Assembly: GCA_965153455.1 (NCBI GenBank)
Contig: OZ234493.1
Coordinates: 1,302,001 to 1,366,000 of the forward strand
DNA: 64,000 nt
Reading direction: 5' to 3'
From: Sphagnum compactum
Taxonomy: Eukaryota
Notes under the pieces: model-generated
What the model was told of the DNA's origin: nothing
What the model saw: only the letters and a program-made list of their open reading frames with translations
The model's database searches: none
In this document: positions 16,651-60,279 of the stretch, in pieces
How positions within the stretch are numbered: position 1 is the first letter of the stretch
Layout of the letters: each line of letters begins with the position of its first letter
Made by a program: the position numbers and the translations under genes

Positions 16651-17486
16651 GAATACGGAGAGAGGGAAGGAGGAATGCGCAAGCGCCCTGCTCTCCTTCT
16701 CCTTCTTCTTCTTCTTCTTCTGTGTTTTCTGTCTTTCTTGTTGTTGGTGTCAGCGGAAGGAACGGAGGATGTGCATGTAATTTGTCCGCATGAAAAAGAA
16801 CAACGACGACAACTAAGTGGGAAGGCTGAGAGAGAGACGCTTTGAACTGTTGGAAAGGCTGTGAAATGCTGTGAAATGTGGAAGAAGAAGAACAAGTGCA
16901 ACATAGAAAAAAGCCTCACTAGAAAGTAACTTGAGAGATTGTGGCAAGTAAGAAAGTGTAGTTCGCTCACTCAACCATGGGCTGGTGCTCTCACAGAGAG
17001 AGAGAGAGAGAGAGAGGTGAAGTGCAGGTGATGTGGAATGAGTTGTGAACGTTGGTCAAGAACTTCAGAGTCACTGAGTTGTGATAACCATGTATGCTTT
17101 TTTTCTCTACAAAAAGCTCTTGGCGACAAGCCTGCCTGCCTGTATTCGAAGTTAATGGAGCAGCTTTAACTTCCAGTCCAGGTGAGCTACAGAAAATCAA
17201 GCACGTCTTGTTCTTCTCTCTCTCTCATGGACACACTGCATTTGCCCTCCTGGACAGCAGCTCCCAACTTCTAAGTTAGAAGCTGATCGGCAGCCACAGC
17301 TGCTGCACAGCTTGTCATCATGTAGTAGTAGAAGAAGAAGCAACAACAACAACAACACTCGGAGGAGCGTTTGATCCGTCACACATTATGAGGAGAACAA
17401 TGCAGAAGAAGAAGAAGAAGCTTCTCCTTCTCACATGTAGTAGAAGCAGCAGCAGCAGCAGCAGCAGCTTCTTCTTCCTCTGGGCA

Positions 17487-20400
17487 ATGGGTCTTGTTTG
17501 CTTCTTCTTCTTCTTCTTCTCTATGTTGCCAATGTCGGTGAGGGGGGCATCATCATCATCAGATGCCCAGCTGCTTCTACAGTTCAAGGCAGGAATAGTG
17601 GAGCTGGGAGCTTCACAAGTGCTAGCTGATTCTTGGGTAGCAGAGAATGTGGACTCTGCAGGTTGTCCTCAAGGATGGTACGGTGTCACCTTCTCCAACC
17701 CTGGCTGCAACGTGGTTGCTCTGTCTCTCCCGGGCCTCTCGCTCTCTGGAGAGATCAAACAGTACACACTAGGGAGCCTCTCTCACCTCAATTCTCTCTC
17801 CCTTGCTCTCAATTCTCTTAATGGGTCTCTTCCTGCGGATATTGGAGCCCTCTCCCAGCTGCAATCCTTGGACCTCTCCAACAACCACCTTGCAGGTACC
17901 ATACCCCAGAGCTTTGCCAATCTGCAGAGCTTGGTGAACCTGTCACTAGCCAACAATGTTCTGCTTTCAGGAAGTATTGTCTCTGTTCTTGAGCTTCCAG
18001 AGCTGGTTTCTCTCAATCTTTCGGGCAATGCCTTGACTGAAGGGCTTGCTTTCAGTGACAATCTTGTCGAACAAGCGAAGCTGGTGACACTTGACCTCAG
18101 CAACAACCAACTGTCAGGCTCCATTGATCCTCTTCTCACATGGCTCCCTTCCCTTGCTTTCCTCAACTTATCTGGGAATGCCTTCTCCGGCACCATTCCT
18201 CCAGAATTTGGGCAGTGCTGTACCACGCTCATGGCATTGGATTTGAGCAACAATGGATTGACAGGTCCCATTCCCACCATGGATCTTATGGAATCTCTTG
18301 TTTCACTCCGCCTTGCCGGCAATGGCCTCAGCAGCTCTGTTCCTTCTCAACTCTTGAATGACCTTGCTCCTCTTCTTCAAGAACTGGATCTCAGCAGCAA
18401 CAAGCTCACAGGTAGGTGATCAATGGATGGTGCCACCCACCTTTCCCTGTTTCTTTCTTTGGTTCCACCCTTTTGTCCCTTGCACGGCTTTCATATCAAG
18501 CATTCTTTGAGTACATACATACATCAAGCAGGTCTCGTGCCGGGTGGCTGTTGGGAGTTTTCTTTTTTCTTTTTTTGTTGTGGGTTTTGTGTGGCTATGG
18601 AGATTGATGGATTGGTTGGTTTTGCAGGTAGTCTGGAGCAGGTGACATCGAGCACCTTACAAGTATTGAATCTTTCATCCAATGAACTGGAAGGTGCACT
18701 CCCGAGCAGGCTCAAGTCATGTATGGTTGTAGATCTCAGCAGCAACTTGTTTTCAGGGGGGATTTCACTTGCAAGCTGGAGTCCTGGATTGGAGATCCTG
18801 GACCTGAGCCATAACCAGCTCAATGGTACACTTGATGATGAAGCTCTGATGCAGCCTTTTCGATTACAAGCTGTCGACTTGAGTTTCAACCAGCTCACAG
18901 GCTCCATCCCATTGAAGCTTCTTTCGTCACCCTCCATCTCTCAACTCAGCTTGTCAAACAATCAATTCTCCGGAGCTATTCTGATGCAACCGTTGGGAAC
19001 AACCGCAGCAGCAGCTCCTTCTCCTCCCCTTCGGTGGCTGGATCTCTCAACCAACAACTTATCTGGTCAAATCCCTGATGCGATTGCGAGCTATCCAAAC
19101 CTGGAAGCACTGCTTCTGGATGTAAATCAGCTCTCAGGAAGCATTCCAACACAACTTTCAAACTTGTCACTCCTTCGAGAACTTGATGTTTCCAGTAACT
19201 TGTTGACTGGTGCCATCCCTGCAGACCTTCCTGCCAGCCTCCACCTCTTGAACGTTTCGCACAACAATCTTTCTGGCACTCTTCCTCCAAATCTCATGAA
19301 GCTGTTCCCGAATGCGTCATTCTTTCCAGGAAATCCTAATCTGATGCTGCCGTTGACAAGTTCTTCTTCTGACCCAGGCATACAGGTAACACTGGGGAAC
19401 AGTAAGAAAAACTCAGGTTCAGTGATTCGAGTTGGACTCATAGGCGGATGCACAGTAGGTGCAGCACTCCTCATTGCAGCAGCCTTGCTTGTTGTTTACT
19501 TCCGCAACTCCTCCAATTACACAACTATCAAGACATCAGTAAAAGTGCCAACACCACTGCTGCCTCAGGATGCAAAAGCTGTCCCCCGTGATCTTCTTCA
19601 AATGGACTCAGTTCACCCAGAGACCATCCCAGCAATAGGCTTCGATTCTTCAAAGCCTCAGTATCATCATGACTCGGAGGCTTTGGATCTGCAAAAGAGT
19701 GCAGGAGATTCACCGATATGGACAAGGTTGCGATCAGCAGGAGGATTGCTATCTTCTGCTGCTGATGATAGCTCGTCTCTCTCATCAGAGCAGCATCAGA
19801 TGGTACTGAAAGTCCATTCACCTGATCGATTGGCAGGTGACCTTTTCTTTCTGGATGGCTCTTTACTGTTCACAGCTGAAGAGTTGTCACGTGCACCAGC
19901 TGAGGTTTTGGGTCGCAGCAGCCATGGCACCTCGTACAAAGCCACTCTCGATAACGGCCATGTGCTTACAGTCAAGTGGCTACGTGAAGGTCTTGCTAAA
20001 AACAAAAAGGACTTCACACGTGAAGCCAAGCGATTCGGTGGGATCAAGCATCCTCACGTGGTGCCGATGCGAGGATACTACTGGGGTCCTCGTGAGCACG
20101 AGAAGCTTTTGTTGTCGGATTATGTCAGCACAGGGAGCTTAGCAAGTCACTTGTATGAGAAGTCAGGTGGAGTGCGAACACATCCGACTCTGACTTGGGA
20201 GCAACGACTGCAAATTGCTATAGGTGTTGCTAGTGGGTTGACATACCTTCATGGGAAGCAAGGACTAGCACATGGCAATCTCAAAGCCAGTAATGTGTTA
20301 CTCCAGGGTCCACACTTACAGGCGCGGGTTGCTGATTACAGTCTTCATCGCCTCATGACGGCTGCAGGTACTGCCAACCATATCTTGAACGCAGGTGCTC

Positions 20401-20777
20401 TGGGCTACCGATCGCCTGAGCTGGCTGCCACTCGCAAACCCAAACCTTCACTTGCAGGTGATGTTTACGCTCTGGGTGTCATCCTCATGGAGCTTCTCAC
20501 TGGCAAGGGAGCTGGCGACATCATGTCTGGCAATTCTGGGGCTGTCGATTTGCCTGACTGGGTACGCCTCATGGCTTCTGAAGGACGACCTGTTGATTGC
20601 TTTGACCGAGCCCTCATTGGTCTTCATCGAGACCAAGAACCTCTGAAAGGAATGCACGAAGTGCTCAAAATTGCACTGTTGTGCATGTCTCCACATTCAA
20701 TGAGACCCAACATGCGAGTTGTATATGATCAACTCGTTGCACTCACTTCTTCTTCTTCTTCTTCTTCTTTTTCATGA
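17487..20777 (+). CDS. LRR receptor-like (pseudo)kinase, GHR1/SIRK1 (At4g20940/At5g10020)-like; exons 17487-18411 and 18628-20777
   Basis: Signal peptide MGLVCFFFFFFSMLPMSVRG (alternative in-frame ATG at 17388), LRR N-cap CPQGWYGVTF, many plant LRRs (LxxLDLSxNxLxGxIP), TM segment VGLIGGCTVGAALLIAAALLVVYF. Kinase domain has EELSRAPAEVLGRSSHGTSYKATL, LTVKWLREG and HGNLKASN. GT-AG intron 18412-18627 joins the two long ORFs in phase. Confidence 0.93.
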
Positions 20778-47600: not shown

Positions 47601-47874
47601 AGCTGATATTGCCTTGGGTGATAAGTCCCTATCAGCATTGCTCTAATATATAGGGTTTTGATGAACTCGGGTATGCACCTTGATATGTAAAACTGGAATC
47701 AATTGGTATGATTTTATGAAAACCCTAAGGCATACCTGAGGTTGACGTTTGCCTTGCCTCCATGGACACTACCATTGCACTTACCCATACCCATAGTTTT
47801 TCTCTTTTGAGATATTCTTATGCATATATGTTCTGTGAAAAATCTCTAAACCCCTCTCTAGTTGCATCCCCCTA

Positions 47875-48186
47875 TGTCATGCCCGTATGCACGGCCTCAT
47901 ACATGATGGTCAGCTACGGGCATGCCCATCATGTCTTTTGAGGGTTAATGTACGTTTGTAGGGTTAATGTGCGCTCATAAGTGACTGTACGCTATTAGGT
48001 ATTTAGGGTTTCAGCTTTGGTGGCTGTATAAAAGGGCCAAGCTCTACCCTTCTCCTTTAGTTTTTCTAGAATTCCTTTGTCAGGTGATTTCTCCATCATA
48101 AGCTAGGATTTCTAGATGCTCACGGCGGCCATTGCACGACCACCGTCTACATACATTTCATTTCTTTCTTGCTTTGCATTTACAAT
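47875..48186 (+). repeat. Terminal repeat A1 (312 bp)
   Basis: Matches 57038-57349 and 57527-57838 apart from three G/A differences seen by eye. Confidence 0.95.
48027..48033 (+). promoter_or_regulatory. Probable TATA box of the retrotransposon promoter
   Basis: TATAAAA within repeat A, 32 nt upstream of the predicted transcript start at 48059. Confidence 0.65.
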
Positions 48187-48198
48187 TCTAGAAAAACT
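48187..48198 (+). other. Putative self-priming primer-binding site
   Basis: tctagaaaaact lies immediately after A1 and is the exact reverse complement of agtttttctaga at 48059-48070; no TGG-type tRNA PBS is present. Confidence 0.75.
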
Positions 48199-48469
48199 CT
48201 ATTCCCTGTTGCTTCATGTTGAAAGCAACAGATTTCTTGTGCTTTTGAAATTCTTGAGTTGTTGCTACTCGTGTTGTTGCTGCCGGAAGGAGCGCGTTAC
48301 TACTGTTGCTACTGGTGTTGTTGGAGGGAGCTTTGCATTTCTTACAACCAACCAAGCAGGGACAAACGAAGTCAGGACATTAGAGATCAGGTGTCAAAAC
48401 TTCTCTCTTTCTCCCATTCTTTTTCTCTCTTCAAGTTGTCGAAAAAAAAAAAAAAAAAAAAACAAGAAT

Positions 48470-49235
48470 CGCGGCGGCGGCCGCTTGCCATCGCTGTAGA
48501 GCAGCGTAGCGCCGCCTGCCATCACTGCGCAGCAGCGAGCTCTAGCGCCGCAGGGCGTTGCGTTCCGCCGTTGCCGCAAGCTGCAACGTCGTAGCGCTGC
48601 AGCAGCACCGCCGTCGCAACAGCGCTGCATCAGCGCTCGCAGCAGCACCGCCGCAGCAAGAGCGCCGCGGCAGCACCGCCGTCGCAACAGCGCTGCACCA
48701 GCGCTCGCAGTAGCACCGCCGCAGCAAGAGCGCCGCGGCAGCACCGCCGCAGCGCCATCGCTGCACTAGCATTGCAGTGCCATCGCTGCCGTAGCGCTGC
48801 AGCGCCATCGCTGCAGCAGCGCCACAGCAACAGCGCCGCAGCGCCATCGCTGCAGCAACAATGCAGTGCCGCGGCAACATTCCAGCAGCGTCGCAACGTT
48901 GCGAGCTGCAACGCCATCGCTGCGACCTTGGTCCGTCCGACTTCCGTCGACGGTCGTCGGACTGTCCTGCGTCACTGCTGACGTCATCGTGCTGCCGTCC
49001 TGCCTGCGTCACTGCTGACGTCATCGTATTGTCATCCTGCTTGCGTCACTGCTGACGTCACCGTACTGCCGTCCTGCGTCACTGCTGACGTCATCGTGTT
49101 GCCGTCCTGCGTCCTGCCTACGTCATTGCTGACATCACCGTCCTGCCCGTCCTGCGCTTTGCCGTCCTACGTCCTGCCTACGTCACTGTTGACATCACCG
49201 TACTGCCGTCCTGCGTCCTACGTACTACTGTACTG
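48470..49235 (+). repeat. GC/CpG-rich tandem repeat arrays in the retrotransposon 5' leader
   Basis: gcagcaccgccg / agcgccatcgctgca units at about 48540-48925, then gtcactgctgacgtcatcgt units at about 48970-49200. Confidence 0.85.
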
Positions 49236-49422
49236 CAGTCCTGTTTCCTGTGTTCTTCGCACTGTGGTCGTGCATTGTGTGGTCTTGTGTCTTGTAGCTT
49301 ATCTTGCTGCATTCTGCCATATTATCGTCCTGCAATTAGGGATATTCAAACCATACATTGTGTTAGAATTTTGTAATTGAAGGATTATATTAGTACAAAA
49401 TTTTGGGGCATGGGACAACACC

Positions 49423-52400
49423 ATGTCCTCGGATGATGAAAGTAGCATTACTCATCCAGAGCCAAGGTATCAATTACGAAGTAACACACAACCCTTTGAA
49501 CCAATATCTTTGAGTTCACGATCCTCACGACGATACCACCAAGCATCCACAGCACCATCATCATCTAGTACAAGTCCTATTAAGAATTCAGGTTTGGGTT
49601 ACACTACATCAACAACACACCAGAGCCCATTTGGAGGGGTTAATCAGTGGGCTACACCTATTACTGCACCTGCTTTCACACCATCACCATATACTCCGTT
49701 GCAAGCTGTGACTTCAACACCCATATACACCATGGAGGTCAGCAGTTCCTCTGGGAGAATAGAGAAGTTCAGCGGAAGGCCAGGTACTATTTCGTTGAGG
49801 GAGTTCAAGGCAACTTTCTCAACAGTCTGTGAGTTGGAGCTGAAGTATGGTGCTAATTACACCGAAGCGTTTGCATTTAAGCAATTGGCCCGTTATGTGC
49901 ATTATGAGGCATTGGATGTCTACGAGCAACATTCTGCAAGGATTTTGGGTGTCACCCAAGCCCCCAATCCAGCTTACGCCATAGCCATCGCCACCGCCTC
50001 TCAAGCTGCAATTGCACATCACGGGACTGTGCCGAATAATCCAGACCCGGTACCTACCTCGGTAAACCTCTCTCCTTAAAAACTCATTGCTGCTACTGCA
50101 AACATTCCTCCCACCATTGATGCGCCAGCTTTTGTTGATCCAGTGGGGGAATTCTTTCGAATTCTTTAGCTGGAATTTCCAGTCAAAAGTTCTGAAAAAA
50201 TTCTGCAGCTCGCCACCTTCTCTCGGCAGAAGGATGAAACCCTCAAGATGCTTTACAGGAGGCTTCTCAAACTCAAAGAGGATACCCAGAGCATCACCGA
50301 CTTGGAAGCTGCCCATCGGTATCTTTGTTCTTTGGAAGGTACTCCAACACTCCACGCACAGGTTTTGCAACGAATCTTTGCAGAATTTGGAGACTCGTAC
50401 ACGTTGCTGGATGTGTACAACATTTCCGAAAAGCTAGAACTGGCTCATGCACATTATGAGGCCAGTACTATGAGGCCTCCATCACGTTCAAGGCCTCAAC
50501 CTACAACAGCTGCACCAACTAGATCATCACATTCTTCTTCAAGGACTAAAGCGGTGCACTCGGCTACACCCATCCTACCTTCTTGCAACTACTGTGGCAA
50601 TCCTGCCCACAAAGCTAGTGAGTGCAACATTCCTTCCGAGGATCTCTTTTGTGATTATTGTGGGAAAGAGGGACATCATGAATCTGTCTGTTTTGCCAAG
50701 TTCCCAGAGCGGAAGCAACTCCGGTTACAACGGCAAAATCTGCCAGCATCTTCCACTATCCCTCAACCAAAAGCCAAGGCACCTCAGCATTCCACTCAGG
50801 CTTTGCCCACCAAGGGTAATTCCAACAAGAATGCTAAGAAGAAGGAGCACAATGCTGATAAGAGGGAGGTGCTTCAAGCCCATGCAATTCAAGTTCAGAC
50901 TTTACAAAATGAACTCGAATCATTGAGGGCTCAACTTGCGAATCTAAAAGGCAAGTCCTCCCAATCAGCTAGTCATGCCCAACCTGTACAAGGTTCAGGA
51001 TCACGCGAGGGACCTCCTAGGTCGTTCTATGGCCTTCCACACGATGCAATGGTTGGGGAGTATGTTCTTTCCACTCCACACAATTCTAGTCTCACACCAG
51101 AATTGGCTACTTCTTTTTGCCCTTCCTTTGTCGCAGCACAAGAAGCTAGTGTGGCACCCAGAGTTTCTGCCACTAGGCAGGTAATTCAGACTGATGGACT
51201 CGCATCTGGTTCAAGTCCTATTACCAGGGCTAGAGGAGCTCGAGCAGTCATGCCACAATCTTTTCGTCCTCTCAACATGGAAGAAGAAGGCACCTTGTTG
51301 GCGAGGGGGGAGGAGACTACTACACCACAAGTTGTTAGGGCATCAAATTCTCATGTCCCAGGAGTACATGTACATCAGGAAAACACACAATTTTCCACTG
51401 ATCAGCTTATGGAATGCCAACTTCAAATGCATGAAGTGGCGCAAAAGCTTGTGAGTACACCATTGTTTAGTTTTCAAGATTTGAAGCTAAGCACCAGGGA
51501 CATAATTGCAATCTTAGAGGATACCTTGAACACTACATCAAGTCCTCTACCAACCCCTAATCCACATGCTACAGAGGTCCCATCCAACACCTTGGAGAGA
51601 CATTCGATTGGTTCACGTGTTGCAGATGGCGTTCGTAATCTAGTCACTAGTTCTGGCATGGCTAAACTAGTGAGCTTTCCTACCTCTGATGCTACATTCA
51701 CATATCAGAAGGGAGTTAAGAACACCTCACTTGTGGATTTGTTACTCAGCAAAGGCGTTGTGGATAGCCATTCTCTCCACAAAGTCTCTCATTCATTTCC
51801 GAAGGTGGTGCCTAGTGAGAGAACTTCCATCGCCACCGGAGTTGCCATTGTCGACAATACTAAGTCAGCAATCCAGGTGGGAGGACATACACCCAGAGTG
51901 GTTCTTCTTGATACAGGTGCCCAACCAGTGATTCTTGGAGTTCAATTCGCCAAGAAGATGGGCATGTTCGACTCCAAACTACGAAAATCTATGTGGCACA
52001 TTCGCACCGCTAGTGGGAGCGTAGAGGAGGTACTTGGGGAGAGCTCGGATTTTATTGCACTTAATTTCAATGAAGGTACAGATCAGGAGCTTTGCTTACA
52101 GGTCAGATGTTTAGTCACCAATGCCACAAGTTATGATGTGCTCATTGGGCAAGAGGCCCTGTTTCCACCAGGTTTTACAATTGACAATTGGTTCGAACAT
52201 GCGTACTACCGAGTGGATTGGGAGACTGATGGCCACCACCTGGGATACATACCCCTTGATTTACATGGGAACCATAGTCCTATGGCTCACCATTGTATGC
52301 TCAAGGAAGCACACACCATTTCCTACATCCAACAAGCTAGCCACGAATGGATAGAGGGAGATGAAGAGGAGATAGCTTACGCTCAAGCTACTGAAAGCTT

Positions 52401-55400
52401 GAGGGTGGTTCCTACTGACATTCAACATGGACCAGAGGTTTTACAAAGGTTCAAAGTAGCCTACAAGCCCTTGGTCAAAGCTTTGTCTAGTTTTGAAAGC
52501 ATGGAGAGCCATGGCGAACCGATTAAGCCATTACTCCGTCAGCTAATCACTTGGACACCACCTAAGGAAGGGATTACATTACTAGAGCTCTTTGGTGGTA
52601 TTGGTACAGGTCTCGAAGCCCTACTACAGTCAGGGATGGTGGTCCGAAGGTATTTCTACGTAGACATTGATCCTATTGCAAGGCAAGTGGCAGCATCGAG
52701 AATGATGGAGCTCACAACCAGATTTCCACAACAGTTTACAACCACTGCATGGAAGGCCAGTTTCACTTTCTTGCCCCCTGACATACAATTAATTCAGAAT
52801 AAGCATATGGAATTACTTGGCCCCGTGGACCTCATCATTTCAGGTTGGGAGTGTCAAGGATTTTCAGCAACTGGATTTGGAGAAGGCTTGAGTGACACAA
52901 GATCCGGTCTCTTCACGGACGTGGTACGATTGATTACCTGGGCTCAATCCATTTCCCCTACGCTTGGTTATGTAATTGAGAACACCCCTTCTCAGCTTGA
53001 CCAGAGGGAGAAAGTCCAGGAGCACTACACACTTGTCAAACATTACCTTGGAGAGCCACTCCTACTCGATGCGGCACAATGCGGTTCCTATGCGCACCGG
53101 TTGCGCAACTGGTGGACCAACCTTGCACCACTTTCAATTCTGCAGTTGGCTCTGAGATACACCATCAGAGACCACAACCTGCAGGTTTCTCACATATTGG
53201 ATGATCAGAGCTCTTGCCAACCAGTTACAAGGCAAGAGAAACCTCCTTGGTTTCCTGCGAATACGATAGGAAAACCAAGAGGTGCTTGGCCCACCTTTGT
53301 CTCCTTCCCTGGAGCACACGCCTTTCAGGGAGATGGACCAGGCTTGGTGTATCGTCATGCTTCAGCCACTTGGGATGAACCAAGCCCAGAAGAAAGAGAA
53401 AGGGCTATGGGGTTCCAAACTGGCACTACTAGTCACACCAAGGTGACTAGATTGGAGCGTAACGCTCTACTCGGGAGAAGCATGGACCTGAACTCCCTTA
53501 CATGGTTATTGGTAACCTGTGTACTCTTTCAAATGTACACAACACCAACACTGACTCAATCAGCTTGCAGCTCTGACGATGCAACCACATGGCACCCCGA
53601 CCAAGTACACTTGCCTATCTTCAACACTCTACATTTCACTCTCAGTGTTGGGGGGGAGGAGGTACCATGTAATTTGACTCAAGTTATGTCCAATACACCT
53701 GGAGGTACATCAGCTTCTGGAGAAACAATTACAACCTTCTACGAATCTACGGAGTTGGATAATGGAAAACCCAATACATCAGGTTCTTCAAACACACTTT
53801 CCAACTCCATTCCATGTGTTTCCAACTACCCTTTTGTTATGGGGAACCAGCTCACCAAGAAGGAGAGAGACCAGGTCACAGACTTGCTAATTAAGTATGA
53901 GAATGTGTTCGCATTCTCAATGAAAGACTTAGGTAGGTGTAAGACCATGCAGTTCTCTATAGACCTTACAGATGAGACACCCGTTTATCGAAGGAGGCAT
54001 AGGTTGAGCAAACATGAATGGGAATTGGTAGATGAAAGATGCAAAGAGCTCCATGAGGCCGGTCTCATTCAGCCATCAAGTTCTGATTTCGCAGCCGCTA
54101 CAGTAATGCCAGCAAAGAAGGATTCAGCTGGATTATGGACTGAGAAAAGGATGTGCGGGGATTATAGGCCTTTGAACCTGGTTACACCTCAGGACAGGTA
54201 CCCCATGCCCATCCCTGAAGAACTGTTTGATAGCATTGGAGACTCAAACATCTTCACAATTGTGGATCTGAGGCAAGGCTTCAACCAGATTGTGCTCGTT
54301 GCAAAAGATCGCAAGAAAACAGCATTCCATGGAAGCAATAAGTTGTGGGAATGGCTTGTGATGCCTTTTGGATTGAAGAATGCACCTGTCTTCTTTCAAC
54401 GAGTCATGGACCAGGTTCTCGAAGGGGCAGATTTCCTGAAATGCTACATAGATGATGTCCTAGTGCATAGCAAGGGACTCCTACATCACTTGGCTCATCT
54501 TGAGGAGTTATTCAAGAGGCTCCACGAAGTCAATATGAAGATCCATCCTAAAAAGTGTGAGTTTGCTGTCACCTCAGTAGTTTACCTTGGACACAGAATT
54601 TTGCCAAATGGTATTATGGCTCATTGGGCCAAAGTAGTAGCCATTTTGGAGATGCCCGATCCTACTGATGTTCACACTTTGAGGAGCTTCATCGGACTAT
54701 GTAATTACTACAGGATTTATGTCCAAGACTTCAGTACTATTGCTCATCCTCTCTATGCATTGTTAAAGAAGGATGTTGCTTGGACATGGAGTGAAGAGGC
54801 TCGGGAAGCTTTCAACACACTCAAGGAAAAGCTTTCAGAGTTTCTGAGAAGACCTGATTTCAGCAAGGTCTTCATTCTACACACTGACTGGAGTGCTCTT
54901 GGTATTGGAGTTATTCTTGGCCAACTTGATGAGGAAGGCAAGGAATATGTTATCGCCTATGCATCTCGAAGCAACAACAAGGCTGAGAGCAACTACTCTT
55001 CATACGAGGGGGAGTGCCTTGCTGTTGTATGGGCCGTCATACATTTCAGGCCCTATCTTTATGGCACCAATTTCACTCTGTATACGGACCACCAGCCTAT
55101 CAAGTGGTTGATGACCAACGATAAGCTTACTGGTAAGTTAGCTCGTTGGGCGCTGATACTTCAAGAGTATGAGTTCAAGGTTATTCACCGACCAGGTATT
55201 ACACATCAGAATGCAGATACCATGTCACGAAGACCCCTCACTACCTCTGAAGATTTTTCAGAAGCCAGGCAAGATTTTGACCAGATCCCAGCAATACATG
55301 TATCTGAGGCATCTAGTTATCTTGCATTACTGCAATGTAACCTGGTTGAGCATCCCATTCTGGATATATGGGAGGACTTGGACACTCTGGGGTTTCTTCA

Positions 55401-56811
55401 ACATGGGGAATACCCTCCCCAAGTTACATCAAGTCAGCGGGATCGCATACAACAGCAATCCAAACGCTACTCATGGAGGGACAATCACCTCGTCCGATGC
55501 TTACCACAAGGCGACAGAGTGGTTCCACCACCACATGAACGCCCTGGTCTTATTCAGAAGGTACACTCGGAGTTTGGACATTTTGGAGTTAAGCGTACTT
55601 ATAGCCTTATCGCTCCTCATTACCATTGGAGAGGTATGTATGCTCAAGTCCGAGACGTCATTGCTAGGTGTGAACAATGTGATAGAGTGAGAACTTCCTT
55701 CTCCTCTCGACAGCTCACTCTTTCTCCACTACCTATTCAGGGCATGTTCTATCGCTGGTCATGTGATTTAGCTGGAGAATTACCACAGACCTCCAGGGGT
55801 AATGTCTACATCATGATTATGATTGAACATTTTTCAAAGTGGGTCGAACTTGTTGCGCTACCGGACAAGTCATCACACAGCACTAGCCAGGCTTTCTTAC
55901 AACAGGTTCTAAGTAGGTTTGGGGCTTGTGCTGAGTGCCTTACTGATCAAGGATCAGAATTCAGGGGAGAATTCCAAGACCTACTTGACCATGCTCTCAT
56001 TGACCATCGTCGGACTTCAAGAGATCATCCCCAAGCTGATGGCCTTGCAGAAAGGATGGTTCAAACATGCAAGAAGGGTCTTCGGAAGATTTGCCTCACT
56101 AAGAACAAAGAGGATTGGGACCTGGCCCTCTCTTACATCGCCATGGGTTACAGGATGTCCAAACACGCCTCTTTATCTCATTTCTCCCCTTACTTTTTAC
56201 TTTTTGGGAGACATCCCATTCCACCCTCTTCCATTGCTGCTCAAATGGACCAAGTTGTGGACTTGGACTCCCCAACCATTTGGGCTAAGGTCATTGCAGA
56301 AAGGGCCGCTCTATTCAGGAGGGTTATGCCCATGGCCATGGAAAACCTGTCCATTGCACAACATCGAGACACCTTACGGTATGCACACACACGAGGTGGT
56401 AGTTACAAACCTAAGGTGAGACAATTTGATGTTGGTGATTTTGTGTATTTTCAGCGACAACCCAATGATACTTTAGACACTTCTTCCGGTCGCACCATCT
56501 TGAGGATTAAGGCGATCAGGCCTTCAGGTGTGTTGGAGCTACAAGGAGCTGACGGACGCACAATTCGGGATCATTCCAAAAATTGTGCGCCTTGCCACCT
56601 GCCAAACTTGGACCCTACCATCAGCACATCGACTTGGATTCCTCCACTTGATTATCCATGTCAGGTATGTCAGAGGATGGACGATGCTGATCAGATGCTG
56701 CTTTGCGACAACTGTAATGGTGGATACCATCTCTTCTGCCTCAAGCCGGAGCTCACTCAAGTTCCCGTTGGCAATTGGTACTGTTCATCATGTTCTCCTA
56801 CAGCACCTTGA
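49423..56811 (+). CDS. Gag-Pol polyprotein (gag, two Zn knuckles, aspartic protease, C5-DNA methyltransferase, RT, RNase H, integrase, PHD), interrupted by in-frame stops at 50077-50079 and 50167-50169
   Basis: ORFs 49423-50079 and 50248-56811 share a frame. Motifs: CNYCGNPAHKASEC, CDYCGKEGHHESVC, LLDTGA, RMCGDYRPLN, MPFGLKNAP, YIDDVLV, FILHTDWS, YTDHQPI, HSEFGH..CEQC, WSCDLAG / LTDQGSEF / DGLAERMVQ (D,D,E triad). Confidence 0.93.
52573..53511 (+). other. DNMT3-like C5 cytosine methyltransferase domain within pol
   Basis: Motif I LELFGGIG, II VDID, IV DLIISGWECQGFS, VI VIENT, VIII DAAQCGSYAHRLRNWWTNL, IX ERERAMGF, X RNALLGRSM. Confidence 0.9.
56659..56793 (+). other. PHD finger (C4HC3) at the integrase C-terminus
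   Basis: CQVCQRMDDADQMLLCDNCNGGYHLFCLKPELTQVPVGNWYCSSC. Confidence 0.93.
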
Positions 56812-56852
56812 TTCCTACTCAGACCATGCCATGCTTTTCCCGGCTCAGGTCT

Positions 56853-56860
56853 GGGGGGGG
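56853..56860 (+). other. Polypurine tract (G8) directly before repeat B1
   Basis: ctgggggggg|atacatgaga; the G run abuts the first base of the 3' repeat array. Confidence 0.7.
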
Positions 56861-58013
56861 ATACATGAGAATTTCATCTCAGTCTCATGTGTGCATTGTA
56901 TATATATGTGTGCATGTATCTCTTTTTAGTTGATTAGTTTATATCTTTGACTGGCTTTAGTCTTTTTGTTTAGTAGAGTTTCTTATGAATGTACACCTTA
57001 CGACACTGTATGTCACGACACTACACGTCACGACAGCTGTCATGCCCGTATGCACGGCCTCATACATGATGGTCGGCTACGGGCATGCCCATCATGTCTT
57101 TTGAGGGTTAATGTACGTTTGTAGGGTTAATGTGCGCTCATAAGTGACTGTACGCTATTAGGTATTTAGGGTTTCAGCTTTGGTGGCTGTATAAAAGGGC
57201 CAAGCTCTGCCCTTCTCCTTTAGTTTTTCTAGAATTCCTTTGTCAGGTGATTTCTCCATCATAAGCTAAGATTTCTAGATGCTCACGGCGGCCATTGCAC
57301 GACCACCGTCTACATACATTTCATTTCTTTCTTGCTTTGCATTTACAATATACATGAGAATTTCATCTCAGTCTCATGTGTGCATTGTATATATATGTGT
57401 GCATGTATCTCTTTTTAGTTGATTAGTTTATATCTTTGACTGGCTTTAGTCTTTTTGTTTAGTAGAGTTTCTTATGAATGTACACCTTACGACACTGTAT
57501 GTCACGACACTACACGTCACGACAGCTGTCATGCCCGTATGCACGGCCTCATACATGATGGTCGGCTACGGGCATGCCCATCATGTCTTTTGAGGGTTAA
57601 TGTACGTTTGTAGGGTTAATGTGCGCTCATAAGTGACTGTACGCTATTAGGTATTTAGGGTTTCAGCTTTGGTGGCTGTATAAAAGGGCCAAGCTCTGCC
57701 CTTCTCCTTTAGTTTTTCTAGAATTCCTTTGTCAGGTGATTTCTCCATCATAAGCTAAGATTTCTAGATGCTCACGGCGGCCATTGCACGACCACCGTCT
57801 ACATACATTTCATTTCTTTCTTGCTTTGCATTTACAATATACATGAGAATTTCATCTCAGTCTCATGTGTGCATTGTATATATATGTGTGCATGTATCTC
57901 TTTTTAGTTGATTAGTTTATATCTTTGACTGGCTTTAGTCTTTTTGTTTAGTAGAGTTTCTTATGAATGTACACCTTACGACACTGTATGTCACGACACT
58001 ACACGTCACGACA
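56861..58013 (+). repeat. 3' terminal repeat array: B1 (56861-57035), gc, A2 (57038-57349), B2 (57350-57524), gc, A3 (57527-57838), B3 (57839-58013)
   Basis: 489-bp periodicity; the copies look identical by eye. Confidence 0.95.
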
Positions 58014-60279
58014 CCTATCTTCCTCATTTTGTGTGTGTGTGTGTTTTTTTCAGGGAAACAAATGGAAAAATTCATTGCAAAGAAATATTTTTAGTGCGTT
58101 TTGAATGGTTAAAACATAATGGGTGCGCCAACTAGGGCTTTATAAAATTTCTTTGTATTCCAAAAGGCAAATACGCAACAATCAAAGATCTTAAACTTGA
58201 AATCCTATTGTGTTTTAATTCACCTGTCACTGAACACTGTACCCATTATACCGAACACCTCATATCTTGTCCATTCCTTTATTGAATTGAGATATTTTTG
58301 CAGTGTTGGGCAGCGCTAGGTGGAGGGCTAAGATACCTACCTACTTTGCACAACAAAGCACAAGTTGTTGCCCACAACATAATTTAATGAGTGTCTCTAC
58401 CATGGAAAACTAGAGGTGAATAATGAAAGTTTGAAGATCATAGCAAAATCATGCCCAATAAAGAAATATAGGCTCTAGCACGCCAAACAAGCAAAATCAA
58501 TATGCAGCAGATTGGAGACAATAAGAGTATAATTGCTTACTTTTTGCAAGAATGACAGAAGTCCATAGTCCATACAATATTACCCCATACCTGGGATCCT
58601 GAAATGAGTAGCAAGGGAATGAATAATTAATTGCTAAGTTGCTCCTCACTAATCCATACACCAATGTGCAATGAGTAGCAGCAAATGTAAAGCACAAGCA
58701 GAACATTTCAGTATATTTGGAGGACACACTATCAAGTGAAATCTGTCACCATGTACATGTACACCAAGAGTACCCTTGCACACATTATACCCAAGATTGC
58801 TTTTTCATTTGACAAAACCCAATTGCTCTTGTCAAAGGATAGGAAACGCTAGTGTGCGACCATAGTGTTTTTGTGTGCAAGGATAGGGAACAACAGTGCG
58901 ATGATGGGGGAATTGGTGTGTGATGTTAGAGGATTCGCAACAAATAGGTCCCTTTACTCTACACCAGATTACACTTGTGTTTGATTGAGGTCAACAAACA
59001 TCATGATCCTATTCCAGCATTGGTGTTTTTTCTTCATAAAACCAAGGATATGGGCTTGCCTGCAATGGTCTACTTTATCTTCAGAGGAGCCCATCAATTG
59101 CATCTGGATTCTGGATGCATTAGGTTCTCTGAAATTGATTTTTATTGTTATCATGGTTGTTGCAATGTGTACTTTCAAGGTTGACCCCAATTGCTACTTG
59201 CCTACCATTTGAAAATTTAGTACAAACCAGTGTTGGTCTAGTATCAAAGAATATTACCTATATAGCAGGCTGGTATGGTCTTCAATACCTTGTCAATGCC
59301 AGGCATAAGCCTATACACCAGAGCACTGAATTATTTGGTGGTGAGTTTTTGCCATTTTATCATTTTCTTTCTTTTTTGGTTCAAATGAAAAAAATCATTG
59401 CAAAGAAAAAGGCTTTTAAAAATATTTTGAAAACAGAATATTTGATCACCAATTCTCTTTTTTGAAAACAATTGCCAAAAATTGTCACAACTGCCTACAA
59501 CATGAAAAAGGCATTTCAGATCCTTTTTACATTCATAATCTGAACTAGTGTGTAACTTGTGCCGTTTGGCCCAAGTGTGAACACATTCTTTATTTTTCAC
59601 ATTTTCAGAATTGAAAATTTCTAAATTCAACAATGTGAACACATTGAGGGCTCAACTGATTTTTCCTCCTAAACCCAATTTTTGAAATTTGTTTGAATTT
59701 CCAGCAACAAAATCCACTCAAAAAGTCAATATCTTCCACACCTTAGCTCCAAAATTTGTGAATAAACTTTGAGCATTCCGAAGATACCAAGAGCACAGCA
59801 TGAAGCACTCTGGTTTGGGAGATCCCAGCATGACAAAACAAAACAAAACAAAACAAACTACAAAAGATGTCACAAAATTTGGCTAAATATTCTTATGGAT
59901 GATTGCCAATTGAGCAACATCACAAAATTGGGAAAGAAAAAACATTGTACCAGAGTTCAGGCAAACACTTACACAAACTCCAATTGTGCCCATCATTTTG
60001 GGCTTACCAAACCTCCTTTTTTTGGGCATACAAAACCTTTAATCTTCGTAGAAATTAGGGCATGTTTGGGCATCACCTGTACATCATCATTTTTGTTTTT
60101 CAAGATTATGCAGCCAAATTGGGAAGGCTCTCAAATGTGCAATGTGTGGTGGATTGAATGTTTTTCCTTAGTCAATGGCCAACAAGAGTGTTTGTGCAAT
60201 TATACAATTAGGTAACCGGTGAGAGCATGCAAGTAACCAGTGTGCTCAAGCGAGTCGCTGGACATAAGCATCCCTTGTG

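Follow-up and report, generated by a model that had tools for sequence, protein, structure and literature searches.

We describe a Ty3/gypsy-type retrotransposon whose long terminal repeats (LTRs) are circularly permuted, located at positions 47875-58013 of a 64,000-nucleotide stretch of Sphagnum compactum (NCBI GenBank assembly GCA_965153455.1, contig OZ234493.1, positions 1,302,001 to 1,366,000 of the forward strand; hereafter the window). In place of LTR-body-LTR, the element and its relatives carry one repeat, A, upstream of the coding region and a second repeat, B, followed in many copies by A and B again, downstream of it. We consider it likely that the two termini of the reverse-transcribed complementary DNA (cDNA) are joined to each other, and that the element's own integrase opens an internal joint, J1, at which B meets A. 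The broader proposition, that this lineage of DDE retrotransposons has moved its attachment (att) sites into U3, such that every productive insertion joins the termini and the integrase opens the internal joint, seems to us on balance probable, if with less assurance.

A repeat search and a self-BLAST of the window returned the same map, A-body-B-GC-A-B-GC-A-B, as the original prediction had read from the letters (Table 1). The three copies of A are 312 bp long, A2 and A3 being 99% identical to A1 (A1 and A2 differ at 3 of 312 positions), and the three copies of B are 175 bp long and mutually 100% identical. The element starts with TGTCATG, ends with CACGACA and is flanked on both sides by CCTA, a 4-bp target-site duplication; a 5-bp duplication was rejected, as the flanks CCCTA and CCTAT do not match. 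At J1 the same two termini stand back to back, CACGACA and TGTCATG being separated by GC, and the joint includes the 10-bp palindrome GACAGCTGTC. Two separate tandem insertions, an autonomous A-body-B element beside a small A-J2-B element (J2 being the joint at which A meets B), were ruled out by the 2-nt gap between them and by the single 4-bp duplication around the whole.

A scan of metagenome contigs yielded at least 476 confirmed relatives, of which the best 80, possibly from several related hosts, were kept (L001-L080; 44-93% amino-acid identity). A, B and the open reading frame (ORF) were mapped on these loci with the window repeats and, in a second round, with 138 copies as queries, and loci with identical right flanks were merged to give independent insertions. 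Downstream of the ORF, 30 loci (23 independent insertions) carry B-A-B, 24 (20 independent) carry B alone with a canonical end, 3 (all independent) carry B-A followed by other sequence and 2 (1 independent) carry a truncated B; left unclassified were 3 loci whose contig ends inside B, 10 with no B found or with a contig ending after the ORF, and 8 in which the ORF is without its 3′ end. Of the 47 independent copies with a classified 3′ end, the window alone has B-A-B-A-B, its extra B-GC-A unit being absent from all 46 others. Neither B nor a second A was found upstream of A1 at any of the 23 independent 5′ ends, window included, and so the family members examined have no ordinary full LTRs; the presence of such LTRs had been named beforehand as the result that would refute the prediction, and it was looked for here. 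Two distant loci (L019 and L057; 44-46% identity), both on short contigs in which no direct repeat reaches 40 nt, are uninformative on layout, and a scan of viral_contigs gave 38 pattern matches with none confirmed. Relatives sharing the domain set came from a protein search, the named one being a Closterium protein (E = 3.6e-30).

The survey bears directly on the possibility that the layout is an isolated rearrangement or a mis-assembly of the window locus. The third B-GC-A unit, unique to the window among the classified copies, would agree with such an origin, as would the identity of the window's two units, which is what a collapsed or expanded assembly repeat could give; the permuted order, however, is found again in 23 independent B-A-B copies of other assemblies, which have flanks and duplications of their own. 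As an explanation of the layout it is refuted by the copies compared, and we give it next to no credence.

The insertion ends are shared by the family as well. In the 16 independent copies that retain both ends (L035 and L009/L074 were excluded, their last B being damaged), the 4-nt flanks immediately outside TGTCATG and CACGACA are identical in 10, one transition apart in 5 and unrelated in 1 (L002), against 0/16 perfect matches at each of 18 shifted control offsets. Recurrence in independent copies places this pattern far beyond chance, and the imperfect duplications have decayed because the metagenome copies are old (A1/A2 identity 86.5-92.7%, broken ORFs), next to which the window copy reads as a young member of the family. 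The integration ends therefore lie at the internal B/A boundary across the family, as first proposed; the further expectation that independent insertions would combine these ends with a 4-bp duplication is borne out for the ends, which recur, and for the ten perfect duplications, and falls short in the five copies matching at three of four positions and in L002.

Four of these 16 copies are B-only, with perfect duplications in L033, L043 and L067 and three of four matching positions in L013. On the tree, B-only and B-A-B copies are intermingled (14 label changes; shuffle mean 15.4, with 14 or fewer in 307 of 1000 shuffles), ruling out a self-propagating B-only subfamily. B-only copies may have arisen by later B x B deletion, with the extra unit of the window as the reciprocal outcome of unequal exchange, or may be dead-end primary products. 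One locus presents an A-J2-B unit (L059:403-797) followed directly by family body sequence from residue 245; the simplest reading is that a copy's 3′ end lies nested within another copy, and the unit is not a case of the other permutation.

The boundaries set by reverse transcription fall elsewhere than the integration ends. Positions 48184-48198, which overlap the last 3 nt of A1, are the exact 15-nt reverse complement of 48059-48073, a segment itself lying 32 nt past a TATAAAA box, and this pairing of self-primer and primer-binding site (PBS) forms the outer stem in both the minimum-free-energy and the centroid RNA folds (z = -3.0). An exact complement of at least 10 nt stands at the homologous place in 10 of 23 A1 copies; in an aligned comparison, 12 to 15 of the 15 positions pair in the 13 scorable copies (10 with alignment gaps were not scored), and L020, L031 and L038 have changes on both sides of the stem that preserve the pairing. 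A tRNA-type PBS was ruled out, with no TGG after A1 and no tRNA gene in the window. At the other boundary, the 8-G polypurine tract (PPT; 56853-56860) adjoins B1, and a G-run precedes nearly every B1, but not B2, in related loci. From these positions we infer that the RNA begins near 48059, that U5 ends in ...CAAT at the end of A and that U3 begins with ATACATG at the start of B, and on this self-priming and G-run reading the reverse-transcription-defined LTR would be B-NN-A. The original prediction had placed a PPT at the start of B and a PBS at the end of A and had deduced an LTR of B-gc-A; our positions lead to the same deduction, the priming site being complementary to the element's own RNA and not to a tRNA.

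If the cDNA is bounded in this way, its two predicted termini meet inside the integrated element at J2. We compared J2 with each copy's own A1/PBS and PPT/B1 boundaries in 11 full copies: 6 are blunt (CAAT/ATACATG), 4 lack 2 nt and 1 has a larger deletion. The loss of 2 nt would be expected from joining on the AT common to both termini, and a J2 that is either blunt or shortened by this AT overlap reads as a signature of end-joining. J2 moves with the PBS in a subfamily (L062) that has an A longer by 17 nt. Over 24 junctions in B-A-B copies we counted 8 blunt, 10 minus 2 nt (one with a further substitution), 4 one-base variants, 1 complex and 1 deleted, and sister copies on the tree have unlike types (L016/L035, L020/L058, L039/L054). 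Since sisters differ in type and indels are rare in the repeats around J2, each insertion seems to form the joint afresh, which an RNA ending upstream of J2 would lead one to expect. The claim that the A/B joint represents fused cDNA ends gains from this comparison, the joint shifting with the PBS and varying between sisters as end-joined junctions do. At two independent loci (L045:3985-3986 and L070:2833-2834), A2 ends exactly at ...CAAT and continues, in place of B, into an inverted fragment of the family body, equivalent to window positions 53364-52722 and 50930-50775, respectively; each could be a mis-joined cDNA terminus, an autointegration-like event or an assembly chimera.

The behaviour of J2 also weighs on a templated origin of the layout, such as has been proposed for tyrosine-recombinase elements whose direct repeats are split: the RNA would span A1 to B2, an unusual course of reverse transcription would copy J2 and B2 from the parent, and the integrase would insert a linear cDNA already ending at the start of A and the end of B. 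Such a scheme explains the one-sided permutation with no further assumption, and the same A1-B1-A2-B2 order is described in PAT, Ngaro and VIPER (PMC4157794). Nevertheless, the PBS adjoins A1 and the PPT adjoins B1 in every copy, which puts the reverse-transcription termini at the start of B and the end of A; we found no way for RNA lying 3′ of R in A2 to be copied; and the J2 types, scattered over the tree and unlike between sisters, fall exactly at the predicted termini. We regard templating of the whole layout as distinctly unlikely.

At J1, the spacer between ...ACA and TGT... is 2 nt in all 27 junctions, and its sequence varies (GC 8, GT 7, AC 6, AT 3, AA 1, TA 1, CT 1), most variants being transitions of GC. 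L005 and L036, the same insertion in two assemblies with flanks one base apart, have GC and AC, respectively, and hence some of the spacer variation post-dates insertion. The B/A palindrome with a central GC in the original prediction is perfect in the window; the GC is not conserved, and with seven dinucleotides in use a perfect palindrome is not required. The conserved feature of J1 is apparently the pair of back-to-back TG/CA ends with a 2-nt spacer, suggesting that the integrase recognition sites lie not at the cDNA termini but back to back inside U3, 175 bp into the LTR.

The enzyme best placed to act on such a site is encoded by the element. Pfam matches in pol run in the order RVT_1, RT_RNaseH, Integrase_H2C2 and rve, the best solved relative of the reverse transcriptase-RNase H-integrase part is the Ty3 Gag-Pol structure 7q5b (E = 8.4e-89), and the integrase triad D1840, D1900 and E1935 is invariant among 11 aligned relatives. 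No Phage_integrase match, the sign of a tyrosine recombinase, was found in the gag and pol ORFs (P0001, P0002) or in 10 further ORFs of at least 100 amino acids. The predicted DDE integrase is accordingly a Ty3-type enzyme. Insertion by a host pathway or by a recombinase supplied in trans, instead of the element's DDE integrase, has in its favour the association of split direct repeats, in other elements, with tyrosine recombinases; a fixed 4-bp duplication around TG...CA ends is nonetheless the mark of DDE strand transfer, the triad is conserved in relatives and no recombinase domain was found in the element, making this a highly improbable source of the insertions. To our knowledge, tyrosine-recombinase elements are without target-site duplications.

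The pol ORF also encodes a Dnmt3-like C5 methyltransferase (PF00145, E = 1.6e-07), whose best matches in PDB are DNMT3A, 3C and 3B. It lies between protease and reverse transcriptase in the window and after RNase H in most of the aligned relatives from the protein search, and domain position therefore varies within the wider group. The protease match (gag-asp_proteas, 23.8 bits) is under the Pfam cut-off of 28.2, and two CX2CX4HX4C motifs were seen by eye in the translation, with no Pfam report at E ≤ 0.01. No chromodomain match was found in pol, the C-terminus of which is a PHD finger; this finger occupies the integrase C-terminus, the site of the chromodomain in chromoviruses, and has the histone-reading PHD fingers of WSTF, KDM5 and ATXR5 as its best solved relatives. 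Two in-frame stops (50077-50079 and 50167-50169) divide the gag-like ORF from pol, and at these codons 33/35 and 36/36 aligned relatives carry sense codons; the ancestral element probably had a single gag-pol frame of about 2460 amino acids.

While layout, termini, duplications and junctions are read from sequence, the steps that link them in a life cycle are deduced. Transcription would start about 32 nt past the TATA box in A1 and end in A2. The RNA 5′ end would fold onto the PBS and prime the minus strand as in Tf1, and the G-run would prime the plus strand, producing a cDNA of the form (B-NN-A)-body-(B-NN-A) with the termini ATACATG... and ...CAAT. Deriving the integrated order from such a cDNA requires that its termini be joined and that the molecule be opened at one J1. 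Both termini would be joined end to end, forming J2, and the DDE integrase would nick after each CA of J1 in the PBS-proximal LTR, leaving CA-3′OH ends with 2-nt 5′ overhangs that would be inserted at a 4-bp stagger. Such ends are the standard substrate of strand transfer. The product, A-body-B-NN-A-J2-B, would be the sole arrangement with U3-R downstream of the body, and hence able to replicate again. We take the element's own integrase to be the probable opener on the strength of the DDE triad, the TG...CA ends, the 4-bp duplications and the lack of a recombinase. The order of events may be read in two ways that fit equally well: (i) a circle is formed first and then opened; or (ii) the cut comes first and the termini are sealed by host end-joining or by an end-to-end jump of the reverse transcriptase.

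A stricter version, in which a free closed 2-LTR circle is obligatory and the integrase opens whichever internal palindrome it meets, shares with our model the evidence that J2 is blunt or has a 2-nt overlap, as joined cDNA termini would, and the integrases of prototype foamy virus (PFV) and HIV-1 are reported to cleave the palindromes of 2-LTR junctions (PMC1180852, PMC1905944). Two identical palindromes should, however, yield both permutations, whereas the duplicated unit lies 3′ of the body in 27 copies (23 B-A-B, 3 B-A with other sequence, and the window) and 5′ of it at none of the 23 independent 5′ ends. This version could be rescued only if every A-B-A had collapsed to B-only while few B-A-B had done so, and we judge it unlikely. 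Of the circle-based integration that was first proposed, the joining of termini and the internal opening stand as likely steps; the one-sided opening was not foreseen, and the window has three copies of B where two are expected.

Several observations weigh against the model of joined termini and internal opening that we prefer. All of its mechanistic steps are deduced from integrated copies, most of them old, and some of the junction differences may be later mutations for the same reason. The reverse permutation, A-J2-B-NN-A-body-B, was found at 0/23 independent 5′ ends, and this one-sidedness is awkward, being unpredicted by random opening of a symmetric 2-LTR circle and calling for an extra assumption; speculatively, the integrase may engage J1 at a stage of reverse transcription when the PBS-proximal LTR alone has become double-stranded, the termini being sealed later. 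The 20 independent B-only copies could be dead-end products of another route, such as cleavage of a linear cDNA within its two LTRs, or passage through 1-LTR circles. The constant 2-nt spacer of J1 is weak evidence of constraint, since any stretch of 2 nt will seldom suffer an indel. A third unit, for which the model has no need, is present in the window copy, which, with two in-frame stops in gag, may not be autonomous.

Viewed against established groups, the family has the Pol order and Ty3 similarity, DDE triad, TG...CA ends and 4-bp duplication of Ty3/gypsy elements and departs from them in having only A at the 5′ end and B-NN-A-B at the 3′ end, not identical full LTRs; with the DIRS group (PAT/Ngaro) it shares split direct repeats, and no tyrosine recombinase was found. 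The A-coding-B-A-B layout as such is already known. Gypsy elements with a Dnmt3 domain were reported from Klebsormidium nitens by de Mendoza et al. (2018; KnitGypsy-Dnmt3), and the Fig. 4c legend of that paper gives their repeats as A-coding-B-A-B, with the structure of a DIRS element, a precedent for the layout of which the original prediction was unaware (PMC5890265). In Section 9 and that legend, no termini, duplications, PBS or PPT positions, junction analysis or mechanism are given. Compared by description only, KnitGypsy-Dnmt3 resembles the window family in being an LTR Gypsy element whose Pol includes a Dnmt3-type methyltransferase and in its A-coding-B-A-B order, and differs in host, Klebsormidium against a land-plant window and relatives on metagenome contigs. 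Full-text literature searches returned no description of the layout besides PMC5890265, and a 2026 preprint on adenine methyltransferases, in the passages where it mentions streptophyte Gypsy-DNMT3 and that were consulted, gives no repeat layout. What appears new is the recognition of the layout as a circular permutation of a self-primed Ty3-type cDNA, along with end-joined termini inside the element, integrase-type insertion at an internal joint and one-sided opening.

Other systems share single features of the family. PAT, Ngaro and VIPER, as described in PMC4157794, have split direct repeats A1-B1-A2-B2, the internal ones lying 3′ of the coding region, and encode a tyrosine recombinase and no DDE integrase, in contrast to the Ty3-like integrase, TG...CA ends and 4-bp duplications found here. 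In Tf1, Sushi and Tcn1, the last of which is present in mosses and club-mosses, the PBS pairs with the beginning of the element's own transcript and not with a tRNA (PMC6317226); the window family, with a predicted transcription start, is alike in this respect and differs in its permuted LTRs and PHD finger, where those elements are described with ordinary LTRs and a chromodomain. Retroviral integrases cleave the palindromic LTR-LTR junction of 2-LTR circles (PFV, PMC1180852; HIV-1, PMC1905944), and the likeness lies in back-to-back integrase end-sites within a palindrome, from which an internal cut gives 3′-processed ends; in the retroviral systems of those reports the palindrome is the ligation junction and the route at most accessory. 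In the window family, the sites would instead be templated inside U3 with a 2-nt spacer, J2 would be a passenger and the route is apparently obligatory. The circles of IS3, IS911 and IS30 have abutted ends a few bp apart that are cut and inserted by an integrase-related DDE transposase; in these DNA-only elements the junction is made anew, whereas that of the window family would be carried in the reverse-transcribed LTR.

LTR retrotransposons and retroviruses are taught as integrating linearly, via the tips of their LTRs, with circles regarded as dead ends, and the route in which a circle junction serves as att site, reportedly put forward by Panganiban and Temin, is long abandoned. If our model is true, this route would be an obligatory natural pathway in a lineage of DDE retrotransposons, and DIRS-like split direct repeats would have evolved convergently without a tyrosine recombinase. 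Confirmation would provide a natural system for internal integrase cleavage and for the fate of 2-LTR-type junctions, explain how split direct repeats can originate without a tyrosine recombinase, and give streptophyte Gypsy-Dnmt3 elements a concrete, testable life cycle. It would also mean that annotation tools based on LTR pairs will mis-call or miss such elements.

Table 1. Coordinates of the retrotransposon and its parts in the window
Feature	Position	Strand	Remark
Target-site duplication, left copy (CCTA)	47871-47874	.	flank comparison
A1, 3′ part of reverse-transcription-defined LTR (end of U3, R, U5), integration end TGTCATG	47875-48186	+	
TATAAAA box within A	48027-48033	+	
Predicted RNA 5′ end and self-primer, exact complement of PBS	48059-48073	+	putative transcription start
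Self-priming PBS, sharing last 3 nt of A1	48184-48198	+	
GC-rich tandem repeats of leader	48593-49225	+	
Gag-like ORF	49423-50079	+	same frame as pol
Pol ORF, 2187 amino acids	50248-56811	+	
Protease	51871-52161	+	within pol ORF; weak match
Dnmt3-like C5 methyltransferase	about 52570-53580	+	within pol ORF
Reverse transcriptase	54139-54600	+	within pol ORF
RNase H	54787-55170	+	within pol ORF
H2C2 and DDE integrase	55525-56031, E1935 at 56050-56052	+	within pol ORF
PHD finger	56659-56793	+	pol C-terminus
PPT, 8 G, adjoining B1	56853-56860	+	
B1, 5′ part of reverse-transcription-defined LTR (start of U3), ending CACGACA	56861-57035	+	
GC spacer of B/A joint J1, proposed internal integrase site	57036-57037	.	
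A2	57038-57349	+	
J2, putative U5 terminus ...CAAT blunt to putative U3 terminus ATACATG..., joint 57349/57350	57346-57356	+	
B2	57350-57524	+	
Second GC spacer	57525-57526	.	
A3, in extra unit unique to window copy; second J2 at 57838/57839	57527-57838	+	
B3, ending CACGACA, integration end	57839-58013	+	
Target-site duplication, right copy (CCTA)	58014-58017	.	

Raw sequencing runs were consulted through Logan contigs over 57600-58400, a region picked because the A end, J2, B and the flank each occur in it once. Several of the runs in which the stretch occurs carry the label 'moss metagenome'. The short contigs of four runs are about 100-200 nt long here and break at the end of A (57838) and at the start (57839) and end (58013) of B. 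Contig depths summed over A and B exceed that of unique flank by about two orders of magnitude, depth not being a copy number, and contigs from RNA libraries match A and B at 85% likeness or more, a match that does not prove transcription. Beyond the element, the right flank at 58109-58331 is another high-copy repeat, in which the contig depth of either DNA run is tens of times the value for unique flank and loose contig ends are numerous at 58109 and 58162. The leader between PBS and gag contains a 20-nt A run (48444-48462) and tandem repeats with units of about 37-68 nt (48593-49225). Elsewhere in the window, and indicative of a land-plant host, two adjacent ORFs at 17388-20777 encode a leucine-rich repeat (LRR) receptor-like kinase (LRR and protein kinase), with a stop codon or an intron between them.

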